A stretch of 64,000 nt of DNA from an uncultured cyanobacterium. GTDB lineage: Bacteria; Cyanobacteriota; Cyanobacteriia; PCC-9006; JAAUQQ01. Each line of letters starts with the position of its first letter. Position 1 is the first letter of the stretch. The position numbers and the translations under genes are program-made. Below, one piece after another: positions 240 to 56,314 of the stretch. The stretch lies in assembly GCA_963718615.1 (NCBI GenBank), contig OY970368.1, positions 3,872,001 through 3,936,000 of the forward strand, given 5' to 3'. The notes under the pieces are model-generated. The model saw only the letters and a list, made by a program, of their open reading frames with translations, searched no databases and was not told the DNA's origin.

Positions 240-357
240 CCCTGGCATCGAGCTAGATTCACAAGCAGTCACCCGCTCACTATTTTCGCCGCAGATGTGT
301 TTCACAACCGAGTTCGGGATGGGTCGGAGTGGTTCCACATCGCCATTGACACCAGGA
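240..357 (-). rRNA. rrf: 5S rRNA
   Basis: Reverse complement reads TCCTGGTGTC...CCCATCCCGAACTCGGTTGTGAAAC...GATGCCAGG, with complementary termini. Confidence 0.95.
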
Positions 358-472
358 ATGCTGTTGGGTCTGTTGGCCAGAACCCAGAAGGCTGCATAGA
401 GAATCTTTAACGAAATGAATGGGCATGCGGTTCTTAACATCACCACATCTTCAACACCCTCTCCACTGATTG

Positions 473-3354
<2,882 letters not shown>

Positions 3355-3617
3355 TCTTCTCAATCACTCCCTTTCACTACTCACATGCTTCACTCTCATC
3401 TACACAACCAACTTCCCTAAATATTCTCTAGAAAAATCTGTTGCTCAACTCAAATCCACACATCTCATAGCTTCCAGTCATCATTGACTTCAGTCTCTTG
3501 GTGTCTGTGTATCTCTCATCCTCGCTTCTTCTTCTTCTCTGGTCTCGCTCTTACACTCAACCTCTGATGAATTAGCAACGCTAAATGAGTTCGATACTAC
3601 CCATTCATCTCTTTCTC

Positions 3618-3637
3618 TATGCAGTTTTCTAGGTTCT
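3618..3637 (-). promoter_or_regulatory. ITS boxA antitermination/processing element
   Basis: Minus strand AGAACCTAGAAAACTGCATA, the typical cyanobacterial ITS boxA; a complementary stretch lies 3' of 23S (~381-399). Confidence 0.6.
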
Positions 3638-3770
3638 TTCACTGGACTAATTGCCCAGCATCCTCATTGCTACCTTTCACTTCATGCTCAACACAAACTA
3701 TACATACAATAGCCTGTTGCTCATCAAACTACTCTTCGCAATCTAGGTGCTAAACTCTAATCCCTCTCAG

Positions 3771-3843
3771 TGGAGGTTAGCGGACTTGAACCGCTGACAT
3801 CCTGCTTGCAAAGCAGGCGCTCTACCAACTGAGCTAAACCCCC
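3771..3843 (-). tRNA. tRNA-Ala(TGC)
   Basis: Cloverleaf GGGGTTTAGCTCAG...CTTTGCAAG...GTTCAAGTCC...CTCCA in the 16S-23S ITS. Confidence 0.97.
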
Positions 3844-3861
3844 AAACACCTTTGGAGAAGG

Positions 3862-3935
<74 letters not shown>

Positions 3936-4174
3936 TTAACTCTTATCTATACAACTATCACTCACTACCTTGATCTCTCAATTAGCTCATGACTCATCTC
4001 TAGATAAAATCAGTCCCTAAACAGATCTGAAAGCTTTACTCGCCCCACTCATCACTCATCCTATCTCTCAATACAATGAACTCTGAATGGCCGAAATCCT
4101 CGAACGACCTTAGAGTGACCTCTCACAACTCGGCAATACTATTGCGCCGATGTCATAAGGGCTAGGTCTCCCTT

Positions 4175-5663
<1,489 letters not shown>

Positions 5664-5934
5664 GTAAACTTAAGTCCCGTGAACACAGTCTCTCAACTAC
5701 ATCCACTCAACTCAGCTCGAAAAGCTCAGCAAACCCTATTCGCTAAAATAGAACTCACCTTCTCAATCCGGCACCAGATATTCTCTATCCGGTCCTTGTC
5801 CCAAAACTCTGACATTAATTGCCAAAGCTCTTCTTTTTCTTGACGAGGACTTCTGGCTTATAAAGCTCTCAATCTATTTCTCTGTCTAGGTTCTGGCACT
5901 TTCCGGTGAGCTCCGCTCCCCTCAGCGCTTTACT

Positions 5935-10065: not shown

Positions 10066-10150
10066 GGAGAGGTGGCAGAGCGGTTGAATGCGCTTGACTC
10101 GAAATCAAGTATAGGGAAACCTATCGGGGGTTCGAATCCCCCCCTCTCCG
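10066..10150 (+). tRNA. tRNA-Ser(CGA)
   Basis: GGAGAGG acceptor stem, anticodon arm CTTGA-CT CGA AA-TCAAG, long variable arm, GGTTCGAATCCC. Confidence 0.96.
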
Positions 10151-30540: not shown

Positions 30541-31119
30541 CTACGCCAACAAATCAGCTACAGACGAGCTAAATCCTAACAGAACTTTCTGGGTACAAAG
30601 GGTTTGCTCTGGATTAAACACCATCCAGGCCCCATCAGTTTTTACCAAAATAAATTGAGACTCTGGAAAAACAATCCACACCTCTTCACAACCCGAAGCA
30701 AGATATTCGTCGGCTTTGGCAAATAGCATTTCAGCGCTATCGTCGGGGGAAGCTATCTCTGCAATTAATGGAAAGCTTTGGGGCAACGTTGCAACAGATC
30801 CAAATTGCTGAACCAATTCAGGGGTAAGGTAGGCAACATCTGGACGACGACCTTGCGTCTGGGTTCGGCAGGGAGCTTCGGTATAGGCATTACCGCCTTG
30901 GCCACTGTCGGTAATGTATCGATTCCAAGCGGTGACAATGTTGCCCTGAACTTTGCTGTGTCGAAGTGTCATACCGTTTTTTTCGATCAGTTCCCCATTC
31001 ACCCATTCCATCCCTTCAGGCGGGTTTTCCAGAAAGTCCTTTAGAGACAAGGATTGAGATTGTTCGTGCTGTAGGTTCTGAGGTGGATTTGGAGAAGGTC
31101 GAATAGGGGTGGTGACCAT
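30541..31119 (-). CDS. Uma2/DUF820 family endonuclease
   Basis: EWVNGEL, RRPDVAY, LIAEIASP, EYLASGCEEVW. Confidence 0.88.
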   Translation of the reverse strand: MVTTPIRPSPNPPQNLQHEQSQSLSLKDFLENPPEGMEWVNGELIEKNGMTLRHSKVQGNIVTAWNRYITDSGQGGNAYTEAPCRTQTQGRRPDVAYLTPELVQQFGSVATLPQSFPLIAEIASPDDSAEMLFAKADEYLASGCEEVWIVFPESQFILVKTDGAWMVFNPEQTLCTQKVLLGFSSSVADLLA

Positions 31120-34681: not shown

Positions 34682-35010
34682 CGGCGCTGACCGGCTAAAG
34701 GGTGATGGGTGCTGAAAGCTTTATAAACTCAAGGCACTCAACACCGTAAATTCGTTGATCACGCCTTCAGAAGACAGTGCTCGCCTTCCACGAACCTGAA
34801 GTTCGCCAATTGACTGACTTCGGTACTGGTCAATCAAATCCAGATGGGGCGATCGCCCACCCTTCTGCCAATTCACCTACTCATCAAATGGTCTAACGCG
34901 AGAACCAGAAAATTGTCAGCGTTTTCTTCAGAGTTTAGAGCGCTGAGGCGTTGGTGAAGATTTTGTAATTTTCTACGCTGGGTCGAAGAGAATAATATTA
35001 TACTGAGACA

Positions 35011-35213
35011 TGCCTGATAATACCTGAACAGGGGTGTTATCGGGCGTCGCTGCTGGGATAATACCTGGAAACGGGTTGTTATCATGCAGCTTTGCCTGAT
35101 AATACCCAACAGGGGGTGTTATTCAGCATGATTGCCTGGATAACTTGCTGTGACTAGGGATTATACGGCGTTGGCGCTTGAAAATACCGGAAGGAGGGAG
35201 TTATCAGGCATCG
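35011..35213. repeat. Five tandem ~41-bp palindromic units (TGCCTGATAA-N16/17-TTATCRGGCR)
   Basis: Units start at 35011, 35051, 35093, 35133 and 35175; arms are imperfect reverse complements. Confidence 0.85.
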
Positions 35214-35236
35214 TGCATGAGAATAAGTTGTTAGCT
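35214..35236 (+). other. Putative attI-like primary recombination site (crossover G35230/T35231)
   Basis: TGCATGAGAATAAGTTG|TTAGCT; GTTAGCTT matches the reverse complement of the downstream attC R'' AGGCTAAC at 7 of 8 positions. Confidence 0.6.
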
Positions 35237-35364
35237 TGATAGCCATTTGTAGGAATGCTTCTGCTAGCTTTCTTGCAAATGTTGAAGTAGTTTTAGATGA
35301 ATAGTTAGAGCAATTAGGCTAAAATCAGGCTGTTTAATCAATTTTTGTATTGGCGGTGTAATGT

Positions 35365-35733
35365 ATGTCAGAACAGAAGCCTTGGCTTTCTATGCTGTCC
35401 TTATTAGGATTTCAGGTGAATGCAGCTATCGAAAAAGGGCATGGAAATAAAATTTCATTCCATGACATTTACAAGGGCTTAGAAGAAAGAAATTTGTTTG
35501 AACTGTTAGACGAAAAGCTTCCTGGAGTTTTAGATCTCAGTCTTTTCCTTGAACGTAACGAGGGAGCTTCCCTTGAGCAGCGAGATGGACTTCTAAATGC
35601 TTTAAGCGATGCTGCGTCAGGTATGGAGGGAAGAGAAAGAAGAAAATATGGTATTGAGAGTTCAGGTTTGTCTTTACTGATGGCTTATATTTTAGAGGCG
35701 ATCCAGCAAGAATATTGGGTAAGTGCTAGATAG
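35365..35733 (+). CDS. Hypothetical protein (gene cassette 1)
   Basis: 122-aa AT-rich ORF between the attI-like site and attC1. Confidence 0.75.
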   Translation: MSEQKPWLSMLSLLGFQVNAAIEKGHGNKISFHDIYKGLEERNLFELLDEKLPGVLDLSLFLERNEGASLEQRDGLLNALSDAASGMEGRERRKYGIESSGLSLLMAYILEAIQQEYWVSAR

Positions 35734-35818
35734 TTACTGCGTGTAATTTGACACACCTTGGAGATAATTGAAGGCAACGTAGGTATGCAATTGAAAGAGA
35801 AGATCGTTACAAAGCACA

Positions 35819-35906
35819 GGCTAACAAACCCAATGCACACCGACCGCCGAGAGATTATCGGTTAGAGTTCAAAGTTATTTGTGGCGGGTGATTGGGAACG
35901 TTATGC
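35819..35906 (+). mobile_element. Integron attC site (attC1)
   Basis: R'' GGCTAAC, 5 nt, L'' CAAT[G]CAC ... L' GTGATTG, 5 nt, R' GTTATGC; extra-helical G at 35835; inner stem CCGCC/GGCGG. Confidence 0.85.
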
Positions 35907-35994
35907 CGCAAGTCCTTGGTGGGGGCAGTTCTTAAGGCTTATCTTCTAGTAGCCAGAGCTAAAATACTGAAAAGTTATTGATTTAGGGACAAGA

Positions 35995-37261: not shown

Positions 37262-37271
37262 GCGGCATAAT
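37262..37271 (+). mobile_element. Truncated attC2 (R'' half only)
   Basis: GCGGCATAA is the exact reverse complement of TTATGCCGC that begins cassette 2 (35901-35909); remainder missing. Confidence 0.6.
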
Positions 37272-37282
37272 CGGGATAGGGA

Positions 37283-37498
37283 ATGCGATTCGTTGCAGAT
37301 GAATAACGGTGCAAGCCCGTAAATAACTCTGCCAGCTTGGCTTCCAAACATGAAGCACTCTCAAGAGCTGAACTGTCCTCTTGATGAGGGTGAAAGTCCC
37401 TTCCATCAAACTCGGATGTGACTCCTGATCTACCCACGATGACCCGACTCGGAATTCGGGAGGTCGAAGCTGGGAGCAGGGCGCAATCAGACACTCAT
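37283..37498 (+). mobile_element. 5' fragment (domain I) of a group II intron
   Basis: Starts ATGCGATTCGTT (GUGYG-like); hairpins ACGGTGCAAGCCCGT and TTGATGAGGGTGAAAGTCCCTTCCATCAA; no domain V/VI or RT ORF seen. Confidence 0.6.
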
Positions 37499-37700
37499 TA
37501 GACCTCTTGCATGAATGCTAAACAGCGTTCTGGTCGAGTTCCAAATTGTAGAGGGAAGCAATCAGGTTAAAGCGAAAGCCAAATCCAAAGTCCTGTTGCC
37601 GTCCTTTTCCATAAACCGTGCACAGAATCTTGAGCGTCATCAAGTCGATGACCACCTACACCATCAGCGTATGCTTACTGTTATTGGCAAGACGTTCAAA
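37499..37700 (-). mobile_element. Internally deleted IS5-family (ISL2-like) remnant
   Basis: Terminal IR-like TAGACCTCTTGCAT at 37499; minus frame KHTLMV*VVIDLMTLKILCTVYGKGRQQDF fused to FGFRFNLIASLYNLEL. Confidence 0.7.
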
Positions 37701-37757: not shown

Positions 37758-38363
37758 TTACCAAATTCGATCCAGACCCAGAACAAATCCCGGCATCACC
37801 TCACCACAATCGATCGAACTGGGTGACTCCAACACCACCGCATCCTGTCCAGGGCGATAAATCTCAACCTGTTGACTCTGAGGATCGATTAACAGCCCCA
37901 ATCTCACCCCCAGCCGTCGATACTCCGCCATCTTCTCCTGCAACAATTTCAAATTATCCGTCGCCGACCGCAACTCAATCACAAAATCCGGCACAACCGG
38001 AATAAACCCAACAATGTCCACGCCCGCCAGTCGTGACTTCTCAATCCAAGACACATCCGGCGACATCTTCCCGCCCCCGCCCGCGATAAAATCATAGCCC
38101 GTCGATGAGTCAAATGTTTCGCCCAGATTAGTTTGGCGATTCCAAATCTCAACATCAGTTCCTAGACTCATATTTCTTTTGCCACTTTCACCACCCGTAG
38201 GAGGCATGACAATCAACTCTCCATCTTTTGTTAATTCCAGGCGCAACTCAGGATTATCCAAGCAAAGCTGGTCAAAGTATTCTGGGGTTACAGTGAGCTT
38301 GACATGGCTAACATTGAGTAACAGCGCATCAACCGATGATGTCGGAGCCGTAACCATGGTCAT
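37758..38363 (-). CDS. Uma2/DUF820 family endonuclease
   Basis: ELTKDGELIVMPP, FDSSTG, SPDVSW, PDFVIELRS, GVRLGLLIDP. Confidence 0.9.
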   Translation of the reverse strand: MTMVTAPTSSVDALLLNVSHVKLTVTPEYFDQLCLDNPELRLELTKDGELIVMPPTGGESGKRNMSLGTDVEIWNRQTNLGETFDSSTGYDFIAGGGGKMSPDVSWIEKSRLAGVDIVGFIPVVPDFVIELRSATDNLKLLQEKMAEYRRLGVRLGLLIDPQSQQVEIYRPGQDAVVLESPSSIDCGEVMPGFVLGLDRIW

Positions 38364-38710: not shown

Positions 38711-39322
38711 ATGGCAATTGCCTCTTCGCCTTCATCAGCGATCGCCAGACAAAAACTAACCCTAGCGGAGTTCCTAGATTATCAGGATGGGACTGACAAT
38801 CGCTATGAACTGGTAGAGGGGGAGTTACAACAGATGGCCATAGGGACAGGCTTGCATGGAGCCATCATAGAGTTTATCAATGATGAATTTCGCAATGAAA
38901 TCCGACGATTACAGCGACCCTGGACATCGAAGCAAGCTGCCGTTGCGATTCAGTCTCCTCGGGGCCGCCGTTGGGAGACCTGTCGTATCCCCGATGTAAC
39001 AGTCTTACCGATAGAACAATGGGAAACACTTTTGTCGAAGCAGGCAGTGATTACGCTAGATCAGCCTGTACCGACTTTGGTAGTGGAGGTGGTGAGCGAA
39101 TCTACGAAGGCTGAAGACTATCGGGCCAAGCATGCGGAATACGGCGTGTTGGAGATTCCGGAATATTGGATGATTGACCCGTTGGATGAAGTAGTGACGG
39201 TTTGTGTGTTTGAGGATGGAGGCTATACGAATCGACGGTTCGTGGGGGACGAACCCCTTCGGTCTGACATTTTTCCAGAGCTAATCCTCACTGCCGCTCA
39301 AATTCTTTCTGCACGGCGTTAA
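38711..39322 (+). CDS. Uma2/DUF820 family endonuclease
   Basis: YELVEGEL, RIPDVTV, LVVEVVSES, DYRAK..EY, EYWMIDP. Confidence 0.9.
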   Translation: MAIASSPSSAIARQKLTLAEFLDYQDGTDNRYELVEGELQQMAIGTGLHGAIIEFINDEFRNEIRRLQRPWTSKQAAVAIQSPRGRRWETCRIPDVTVLPIEQWETLLSKQAVITLDQPVPTLVVEVVSESTKAEDYRAKHAEYGVLEIPEYWMIDPLDEVVTVCVFEDGGYTNRRFVGDEPLRSDIFPELILTAAQILSARR

Positions 39323-39374: not shown

Positions 39375-39959
39375 TTACCAAATTCTCTGCAAGTTCAAAA
39401 CAAACCCTGGCAACTCCGGCTCTGCGCTGACCTGATCCGGTTTCTGAAGGCAGACCACATTCTGCCCTGGACGATAGACATACACATTGTAATGTTTTCG
39501 ATCGATTAAAAACCCCAACCGACAACCCGGTTCCGCTAAATACTCCTCCATCTTTTCTTGCAAAGGCTTGAGATTATCCGACGGGGACCGCAGTTCCACA
39601 ACAAAATCGGGACAGATAGGAGCAAATCGCGATCGCAACTCCGGCTCCACACTATGCCAACGCTCCAGCGTTATCCAAGCCGCATCGGGAGAACGGTCTG
39701 CGCCCGTTGAAAGTTTAAATCCGGCACTAGAGCTAAATACAATTCCAGTTCCGTCTTGTTCTGCCCAGGCCCATAGCGGCCCAATGATTCCTGCTTCGCG
39801 ATGACCGGATTCTGAACCAACAGGGGACATAATTGAAATGACTCCATGGCGATCGCGCTCAATCCGCAGTTCCGAGTTTTCCTGACAAAACTCAAAAAAT
39901 TGTTGCTCCGTCATCCGCAGGGACGTGGGAAATTTTACGGAAAGAGAAGAAGAGAGCAT
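39375..39959 (-). CDS. Uma2/DUF820 family endonuclease
   Basis: FSSSAGF, RSPDAAW, CPDFVVELRSPSD, KMEEY. Confidence 0.9.
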   Translation of the reverse strand: MLSSSLSVKFPTSLRMTEQQFFEFCQENSELRIERDRHGVISIMSPVGSESGHREAGIIGPLWAWAEQDGTGIVFSSSAGFKLSTGADRSPDAAWITLERWHSVEPELRSRFAPICPDFVVELRSPSDNLKPLQEKMEEYLAEPGCRLGFLIDRKHYNVYVYRPGQNVVCLQKPDQVSAEPELPGFVLNLQRIW

Positions 39960-55526: not shown

Positions 55527-55926
55527 AGTTCTTTATATGGCTATCGTCAGAACTCACGAATCGAGAAACGCATTGCTCCGACGCCCCTGATGCAAGAAGG
55601 ATCTGAACTCCTAACTACTAAAACAGGGCAACCTGCTTTTAAAAGGGATCAGGACCCAGTCTTCGCGGAATCTACACGATTAATCCTGGCTATCTGAAAA
55701 AACGATAAACCGCTAATCGCATTGTTCCCGAGTTTTCTACGCATCCATCACCCCTCCATGGTAACCGTACACTGTGTTTCTCTTGTTACAAGTACGGTCT
55801 ATTGGTGGCCTATTCTAGAATGCGATCGCAGGGCTGGCGAAGGTCTTTGGCCCCTGAGGAGAGCGAACCCGCACCACCCCCTCATCTAGAGCCGGATGGG
55901 TAATGATTCAAACTAAATAATGGAAT

Positions 55927-56314
55927 GGAAAAGTCGGACATAAGCCGGGTTCTGTTCCCCGCTTTCCGAAGAAAACGGAGGGCAGTTATCTATCTGGGAC
56001 AGCGGTTACCCGACGCCTCAAGCGGTGCTCTCATGACGGAACAGGCAAAAGACCAACCCTTGTTCCAACGACCTTGCTCCCAACCGGGGTTTACCGAGCC
56101 AGCACCTCTCAATGCTGCTGGTGCGCTCTTACCGCACCTTTGCACCCTTACCTGTGAAGTCTAGACTTCCATCGGCGGTATGTTTCTGTGGCACTCTCCT
56201 CACGGTCACCCGCACTGGGCGTTACCCAGCAAGTTTGGTCTTTCGGGAGCCCGGACTTTCCTCAGACTGGGTCAGCGATGCCGCCCAGCCCGCAACTGCC
56301 TCGCCAACTTTTCC
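55927..56314 (-). ncRNA. rnpB: RNase P RNA
   Basis: Minus strand GAGGAAAGTCCGGGCTCCC ... AACAGAACCCGGCTTATGTC; paired termini GGAAAAGTT/GACTTTTCC. Confidence 0.96.

Follow-up and report, generated by a model that had tools for sequence, protein, structure and literature searches.

A 64,000-nucleotide stretch of the genome of an uncultured cyanobacterium (contig OY970368.1, positions 3,872,001 to 3,936,000; hereafter the window) carries at 35011-35236 an array of five phased palindromes that leads into a gene cassette. Comparison with the other copies in the same genome and with further cyanobacterial integrons identifies this feature, at the level of sequence, as the attI region of a decayed chromosomal integron platform. 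We put at roughly 55% the interpretation that its palindromic units are accessory binding boxes for the integron integrase (IntI) on double-stranded DNA, phased at four helical turns, in which case they would form an expanded, inverted-pair counterpart of the DR1/DR2 sites of attI1. The window copy itself is best described as an orphan platform, its own intI gone and one cassette still carried.

Direct reading of 34700-35600 bore out the principal elements proposed in an earlier, sequence-only reading of this DNA: five palindromic units of ~41 bp with the starts and spacers it had given (units at 35011-35211), an alternation of the inner spacers (16/17/16/17/16) across U1-U5, and a sixth left half-arm that runs into G|TTAGCT, with the crossover point at 35230/35231 (Table 1). 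The arms that this reading had summarized in a single consensus are present but imperfect, with U2, U4 and U5 deviating. Each unit is palindromic along its entire length, including the spacer flanks (TACC...GGTG) beyond the boxes; units measure 36-38 bp and would form stems of 14-15 bp if folded. Conservation stands at 0.91 in the arms, 0.82 in the linkers and 0.79 in the spacer centres. The array exceeds chance: GATAA-N16/17-TTAT occurs six times in the window, every time within the array, against 0.53 occurrences expected, and 0 of 100 shuffles reached six. A repeat search of the array returned start-to-start spacings of 41, 41 and 82; Tandem Repeats Finder, at a score of 30, did not report it because the unit copies are too unlike one another.

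Immediately before U1 lies an unpaired half-site (R0), which sits as a right arm would, much as TTATCGGGCG-TCGC sits before U2. The TATACT hexamer noted earlier is indeed located here, at 34999-35004; its interpretation as a -10 box is weakened because it coincides with this right-arm-like half-site, and a promoter scan called no sigma-70-like site that uses TATACT as -10, its matches falling inside the units. Farther upstream, a 28-nt block is near-invariant in alignments of 9-10 copies from this genome and two copies from a related one, and is a candidate promoter or operator region; the same scan called no sigma-70-like site in 34954-34981.

Table 1. Elements of the array region in the window, and layout of phased arrays at other loci.
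Feature	Position	Strand	Description
Conserved 28-nt block	34954-34981	+	GGTGAAGATTTTGTAATTTTCTACGCTG; between former intI start and array
R0	34998-35010	+	unpaired right-arm-like half-site TTATACTGAGACA; contains TATACT; kept in copies
U1	35011-35046		inverted boxes, left TGCCTGATAA, N16, right TTATCGGGCG
U2	35052-35088		inverted boxes, left GCTGGGATAA, N17, right TTATCATGCA
U3	35093-35128		inverted boxes, left TGCCTGATAA, N16, right TTATTCAGCA
U4	35134-35170		left GCCTGGATAA, N17, right TTATACGGCG; least palindromic of the five
U5	35175-35210		inverted boxes, left CGCTTGAAAA, N16, right TTATCAGGCA
Putative attI core (simple site)	35214-35236	+	left box TGCATGAGAA (35214-35223), 7-bp TAAGTTG, then TTAGCT (35231-35236)
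Cassette 1	35231-35900	+	begins at TT following the attI crossover, ends at G of the right-hand attC box
attC of cassette 1	35814-35910	+	imperfect palindrome GGCTAAC...GTTATGC; right-hand box 35900-35906
Array of own genome, copy c3			5 units; inner spacers 16/17/16/17/16; period 41 throughout
Array of L039			6 units; inner spacers all 17 bp; periods 40, 40, 40, 41, 41
Array of L045			5 units; inner spacers all 17 bp; periods 40, 40, 41, 41
Array of L059			3 units; inner spacers all 17 bp; periods 41, 41
Array of L034			4 units; inner spacers 17-18 bp; periods 41, 42, 42
Array of L038			3 units; inner spacers 17-18 bp; periods 41, 42

A blastn search of the organism's own genome (6.10 Mb, a single contig) with positions 34900-35300 revealed that the array belongs to an element of ~300 bp present in ~11 copies (c1, the window copy, to c11) at 70-96% identity. 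These lie at about 292.8, 295.4, 417.7, 428.1, 745.8, 1015.4, 3859.5 and 3907.1 kb (the last being the window copy) and near 4097.0, 4646.5 and 4714.0 kb, a set that corresponds to our loci L003-L011. Aligned copies have in common the 28-nt upstream block, R0, the five units and the sixth left arm; all are alike up to ...AAGTTGTTA and wholly different beyond it, the bases that follow GTTGTTA being GC, TA, GG, TG and others depending on the copy. Because the copies agree up to GTTGTTA and differ afterwards, we place the crossover of the window core, provisionally, between G35230 and T35231. The 5' end of the element differs among groups of copies, and its 3' end is the cassette junction. Unit number varies in whole periods, with one unit fewer in c7, two fewer in c9 and about two fewer in c11. 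A motif search and blastn found the array motif nowhere else in this genome, and neither terminal inverted repeats nor target duplications were seen in the copy alignments, as judged by eye and with no formal test.

One further copy, c8 (L009:2609-2908, minus strand), is a truncated array that starts within the left arm of unit 3. On the opposite strand its common sequence ends in ...GGTATTA, after which new sequence begins. This end mirrors the junction at the core and could mark a recombination event at an accessory unit.

The sequence-only reading had called the site attI-like, and its integron context is borne out by remnants of intI, by the common G|TT end and by attC sites downstream. 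The TIGR02249 profile finds a single intact intI gene (948656-949594), which scores 443.8 bits where the cut-off is 265, together with divergent, protein-level intI remnants directly upstream of c3, c4 and c10, for which tblastn agrees, and one more remnant elsewhere. Approximately 60 nt of upstream sequence, ending at the start of the divergent open reading frame (ORF), are shared by c3, c4, c6, c7, c9 and c11, and in c6, c7, c9 and c11 the first bases of intI persist as start-codon stubs. No intI remnant accompanies c1, c2 or c5; upstream of the window copy are an unrelated 193-aa ORF and mutS. A divergent intI thus adjoins the element family, though not the window copy. In the window the core takes the form of a simple site, with two inverted boxes around a short spacer (TGCATGAGAA-TAAGTTG-TTAGCT), and it is followed by co-oriented cassette sequence with an attC of one family (A3). 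It can be observed in passing that a single genome here holds about ten attI platforms of one type, each with its own first cassette, and that none of these has an intact integrase of its type.

Downstream of each copy, at a distance of about 20-170 nt, comes a co-oriented ORF. The families of these first ORFs are mostly unrelated (a trehalose phosphatase, an AAA ATPase, an AraC-type regulator, a pair of AAA_21 and DUF4276 proteins), and several belong to no family; the ORF of cassette 1 in the window (35365-35733, 122 aa) has no Pfam family. The attC sites after the cassettes of c1, c2, c3 and c5 align at 74% column identity and define family A3, the window attC folding as a long imperfect hairpin on both strands. 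An nhmmer profile built from those four sites and run against the genome at E-values up to 0.01 returned 18 sites of about 88-93 bp; the window site, itself one of the four used for training, scores an E-value of 6.3e-24. Twelve of the 18, the training sites included, lie on the downstream side of an array or of the second intI remnant and share its orientation. By array they are distributed over c1, c2, c3 (three sites), c5, c7, c9 and c10 (two), and seven of the ten type-1 arrays, as we term the window type, have an attC site within 3.5 kb. The other six matches, at 2245120, 3133729, 3236104, 5014237, 5022910 and 5046652, are far from any array or intI remnant and may be attC clusters without a platform. 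A home-made palindrome scan for attC was dropped as unspecific: it yielded 17 candidates (~1.5 per segment) in the 11 segments downstream of arrays, below the 2.4 candidates per random 2.9-kb segment. The four clearly homologous sites behind the profile were among its candidates.

In one metagenomic run (X1, probably DNA), the matching contigs fall chiefly on cassette 1 and its attC. A number of them end around 35818-35822 and around 35853/35903, and one piece, of 35 nt, maps to unit 5. Several different contigs match only the attC stretch 35818-35903; their flanks on either side are unlike the window, a pattern that related attC sites in other cassettes would produce.

The intact intI at 948.6 kb (L030) is not accompanied by a copy of the window-type array. 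Directly before its start codon there are instead four units of a different sequence, TGATAGSCAGAAAnTTTCTnnATATC on the intI-sense strand, spaced 40, 33 and 39 bp apart, and the same type-2 array occurs at a remnant at 1.907 Mb. The two type-2 copies are alike up to ...CCTATTAAGAGTTA (AAGAG|TTA) and divergent beyond; the divergence point follows AAGAGTTA and again behaves like a cassette junction. Both array types end at a G|TT boundary to the first cassette. Compared with all sampled IntI proteins, the intI remnant beside the window-type array shows 54-69% identity. We found no intact cognate intI of the type-1 array in the organism's own genome, in contigs of related genomes or in metagenome scans. 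Outside this genome the type-1 array was encountered only on two contigs of one related metagenome-assembled genome, also beside a remnant. A first metagenome scan for it gave 0 loci; 28 loci returned by a second scan were judged chance matches, none having intI or an array.

To set these arrays against those of other cyanobacterial integrons, we used the 127 of 401 sampled genomes of the class that have a TIGR02249 match above cut-off. Thirty intI loci were taken, five with less than 330 nt of upstream sequence were dropped, and the 25 kept were considered together with the two types of the own genome. For each region, the half-site statistic counted occurrences, in both orientations and with at most two mismatches, of the best 10-mer in the 300 nt after the intI start, against a null of 10 mononucleotide shuffles per locus, the genomes being related. 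The count exceeded all 10 shuffles in 18 of the 27 regions (16 of the 25 from other genomes). In most of the passing loci (for example L033, L039, L045, L048, L059 and L060) orientation alternates strictly with a period of 40-42 bp; L046 passes without a phased pattern. Arrays take up the interval from intI to the cassettes and often begin within ~10 nt of the intI start codon; one named case is Kovacikia minuta CCNUW1, on its plasmid pB (L093). In the one non-cyanobacterial control, a class 1 integron, the half-site count was 3 against a shuffle maximum of 4, compared with a count of 9 for the window type.

The nine loci from other genomes that do not pass belong for the most part to one IntI clade. 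Loci of the clade without arrays (L036, L037, L041, L046, L051, L061) have just one short palindrome, of the type TAGATCTC-N5-GAGATCTA, immediately preceding ATAGTTAG; this is a second, simpler attI layout in cyanobacteria. In L039, L045, L060, L093, L035 and L059, a separate conserved palindrome of the form GATGTAC ... GTACATC is found after the start codon of intI and ahead of the first unit; it is a candidate operator for a regulator of intI.

Across the phased arrays the layout is largely constant (Table 1). A script that looks for inverted arms 15-19 bp apart, then one further left arm followed by GTT, gives inner spacers of mostly 16-18 bp, the exceptions on reading being ~10 bp in one unit each of the type-2 array and L054 and ~20 bp in one unit of L034. 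The left arm recurs before the junction, with a spacer of 6-8 bp, in L033, L038, L039, L045, L053, L054, L055, L059 and L060, and in L039 and L045 this junction arm is identical to the unit consensus at 9 of 9 positions. The script reports its geometry of left arm, 6-8 bp and TTR in 11 other loci, including L036, which has no array, and L048, for which the left-arm consensus was taken from another, unrelated palindrome pair and not from the arms of the array. For the window type it halts at the first GTT (spacer 4); the second GTT (spacer 7) is favoured both by the point at which the copies diverge and by the other loci. Arms of the form xTTAGGC / GCCTAAx occur in many arrays and look like the canonical integron box consensus (PMC4909258). 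The accessory units can accordingly be described as the core geometry opened by one helical turn. The earlier comparison of the arms with XerC/dif sites is not needed; a better description of the units is as inverted boxes of integron type, set one helical turn further apart than those of the core.

In a tree built from 31 IntI proteins, arrays of the GATAA type fall in one clade with 100/100 support. A 9-row clade, likewise with 100/100 support, has none; the array-less loci are mostly in another clade than the GATAA type (100/100), and the TTAGGC-type arrays lie between. The label of array or no array changes 4 times on the tree, as opposed to about 8 times when shuffled. This association of array type with IntI clade fits co-evolution of the integrase and its sites.

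From these comparisons a working model can be outlined. The core has two inverted integrase boxes 7 bp apart, and cassettes are joined there at G|TT. The five units upstream have like boxes in inverted pairs 16-17 bp apart, one helical turn more than in the core, and repeat every 41 bp, or about four turns. In the model, IntI protomers would bind these roughly 12 boxes on one face of double-stranded DNA. The units themselves would not recombine because their box spacing is wrong for catalysis. Instead, as DR1/DR2 do in attI1, they would concentrate integrase locally and organize the DNA into an ordered nucleoprotein complex in which recombination of attI with attC, and hence insertion at the core, is favoured. 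Lying as they do in the interval from intI to the cassettes, the arrays may also exert feedback on promoters in that interval. The helically phased platform of about ten half-sites that the sequence-only reading had envisaged is well supported by context and comparison, namely by the intI remnants, the G|TT end, the attC sites, the analogous arrays and the reuse of a half-site in the core; comparison shows the attI-region identity and its geometry as far as sequence can, and binding of the units by the recombinase we infer.

Several observations weigh against the model. All of the evidence is comparative. The type-1 array lacks an intact cognate intI in this genome and, in the one related assembly where it recurs, again stands beside a remnant; its conservation may therefore serve another purpose. 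Whole-unit palindromy would also suit a hairpin or a cruciform, and the cassette-sense strand folds better as RNA in 10 of 10 full type-1 copies, with stems that hold 98 G-U as against 27 A-C positions. The half-site statistic compares each locus with only 10 mononucleotide shuffles and is passed by a locus without phasing (L046), and 9 of 25 loci from other genomes show no array. Finally, simple co-inheritance of neighbouring sequences would give the same clade pattern.

Other functions for the units can be weighed against integrase binding. They might be operators for another DNA-binding protein, a dimeric repressor or host factor that controls the divergent intI and cassette promoters or organizes the attI DNA, with IntI acting on the core only. 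Phased palindromes are typical of dimeric regulators, the arrays start so close to the intI start codon that the intI promoter must overlap them, and the Vibrio cholerae attIA reaction is thought to require host factors (PMC8946536). We nonetheless consider an operator function distinctly unlikely: the left arm of the units is reused as the left box of the core, identically in L039 and L045, the arms resemble integron boxes, and the sequence of the array shifts with the IntI clade, whereas a host regulator would be expected to retain one motif per host lineage, and this genome has two different array types. Still less can be said for a non-functional repeat, either a miniature mobile element or a relic tandem duplication lying near integron remains by chance. 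The copy number and the range of identity would suit such an element, as would the three copies without an intI remnant; yet in every copy the 3' end falls on the cassette junction, in many genera arrays independent in sequence occupy the same place beside intact intI, and neither the confinement of the motif to these copies nor the lack of visible terminal repeats or target duplications speaks for it, leaving this explanation highly improbable.

The remaining alternatives invoke folding of the units. In one, proposed already in the sequence-only reading, the array is transcribed with the cassettes as a five-hairpin leader that stabilizes the transcript or controls translation of the first cassette. 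The cassette-sense (plus) strand of the window array folds at -100.8 kcal/mol (z -6.1) compared with -66.4 kcal/mol for the minus strand, the TATACT hexamer lies just upstream, and a co-oriented ORF follows every copy. The strand bias that holds throughout the type-1 copies is not general, however: of 14 other arrays, only 8 have the cassette-sense strand as the more stable one. Among the 10 full type-1 copies, pairing within units is kept at 88.4%, with 4 pairs changed on both sides, and its covariation score is reached by 107 of 500 shuffles; pairing between units fits equally or better (93% kept, score reached by 1 of 500 shuffles), on only 4 double-changed pairs among sequences that are close kin. 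Pairing is kept because the arm sequences are kept. RNAalifold prefers a mixture of intra- and inter-unit pairing with a covariation term of +0.8, and Rfam gives no match at its gathering thresholds (at E-values up to 10, only mir-137, at 19.5 bits against a gathering threshold of 56.7). In addition, the period of 40-42 bp has no obvious meaning for an RNA, the hexamer coincides with a half-site, and an upstream cassette promoter would fall inside intI at the many loci whose array adjoins the intI start. The leader retains the strand bias of type 1 in its favour and gains little support overall; we regard it as improbable. A different use of the same folds would be as single-stranded DNA or cruciforms, small attC-like hairpins read structurally by IntI or serving as secondary recombination sites. 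Here the palindromy of the whole unit is relevant, with its long stems and folding energies of up to -23 kcal/mol for single units, as is the recognition of folded attC by IntI (PMC8946536), the loss of whole units in c7, c9 and c11, and the truncated c8, which begins in the left arm of unit 3 with new sequence that starts TTA on the other strand. Against this, the units are much shorter than attC sites, their stem fits one box pair only, not an L pair and an R pair, whole-period deletions could equally result from slippage or from homologous recombination of the repeats, and c8 is just one truncated copy. A cruciform role thus appears decidedly improbable. The constancy of the 40-42 bp period, in spite of differing sequence and a differing partition into arm and spacer, fits a constraint on double-stranded DNA.

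Some narrower RNA candidates were set aside along the way. The absence of an Rfam match ruled out a known RNA family. A small-RNA gene family, suggested by the ~11 copies and the conserved upstream block, was dropped given the intI remnants and the cassette junction, and a guide-RNA-like element with a variable 3' flank was rejected because this flank starts as cassette sequence and ends in attC. Unbiased picking of hairpins in the other loci was ambiguous, neighbouring arms pairing either way.

The closest known counterpart is attI1. Like the cyanobacterial arrays, it lies between a divergent intI and the first cassette, has its crossover at G|TT, and contains a core of inverted boxes 7 bp apart (CTAA-N7-TT in the class 1 control locus, with the crossover placed at the attI1 position). 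Extra core-like sites are found upstream of the attI1 core as well: DR1 and DR2 are two additional binding sites for the integrase that promote recombination of attI with attC and may serve as topological filters (PMC8946536). These attI1 accessory sites number two, are in direct orientation and have no regular phasing, whereas the cyanobacterial arrays comprise 4-7 units of inverted pairs (8-14 boxes), spaced mostly 16-18 bp apart within a 40-42 bp period. In place of two directly repeated single boxes, the window thus has inverted pairs, five to six of them, at a 41-bp period. The attIA site of V. cholerae likewise belongs to a sedentary chromosomal integron, to whose integrase it is cognate; it is reported to lack such repeats (PMC8946536). 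Array units share with attC sites an imperfect palindrome with integron-type boxes at its ends. They differ in being 36-38 bp long rather than 57-141 bp (PMC4909258), in having one box pair where attC has R''-L'' ... L'-R', and in standing in tandem and in phase rather than flanking ORFs. The attC profile of this genome does not match them.

Accessory recombinase motifs beside a core are also a feature of lambda Int, with its arm-type sites, and of TnpI, with DR1/DR2 in the Tn4430 resolution site. In both of these systems the extra sites build a higher-order complex that acts as a topological or directional filter, although the recombinases belong to other families and the layout of the sites is different. 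The dif site of XerC/XerD is a single site with a 6-bp central region; its arms end in ATAA / TTAT, as do those of the window array. In the array type described here the inner spacers are instead 16-17 bp, the sites are arrayed and the neighbour is an integron integrase. In the open full text of PMC and bioRxiv, we found no description of phased-palindrome arrays in attI or of cyanobacterial attI sites. Relative to attI1 and its DR1/DR2, the differences lie in the number of accessory boxes, their inverted pairing, the fixed inner spacing and the helical phasing.

Some further features of the region and of the related loci can be recorded. A 232-nt stretch between two ORFs of the window (37268-37499) is 96.6% identical to the sequence after the first cassette of c6 and 85% identical to that after the c11 cassettes; it is not a match to the attC profile. 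The c11 cassettes (L009:3439-5192, minus strand) carry genes for an AAA_21/AAA_15 ATPase of 383 aa and for a DUF4276 protein of 201 aa, a pair that looks like a defence-type module. Around the integron remnant in the window are four genes of the Uma2 family (putative restriction endonucleases), on both strands, at 30541-31119, 37758-38363, 38711-39322 and 39375-39959. The window also holds an rRNA operon with two tRNAs, another tRNA and an RNase P RNA (240-5665, 10066-10150 and 55926-56311), all of them ordinary.

To our knowledge, attI sites are known in detail for few integrons. The comparisons presented here suggest a grammar for cyanobacterial attI, in which the junction consists of a left arm, a gap of 6-8 bp and TTR, and upstream of it the same boxes recur, mostly 16-18 bp apart, in units of 40-42 bp. 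This grammar would allow attI sites and the starts of cassette arrays to be annotated in a phylum where about one third of the sampled genomes carry intI. A larger proposal, which we advance tentatively and consider unlikely as a whole, is that many cyanobacterial integrons would assemble a large phased attI intasome, with 8-14 protomers on over-spaced boxes wrapping the DNA towards one active core and the array doubling as an integrase-sensing operator of the divergent promoters; orphan platforms such as that of the window would stay usable in trans. In its boldest form, the units would extrude as cruciforms and attI would be presented as hairpins like attC. With accessory boxes for IntI as the preferred interpretation, the arrays offer a testable case for the control of a tyrosine recombinase by accessory sites and helical phasing, and the presence in one genome of about ten orphan platforms, each with its own cassette, raises the question of whether one integrase may serve several insertion sites.

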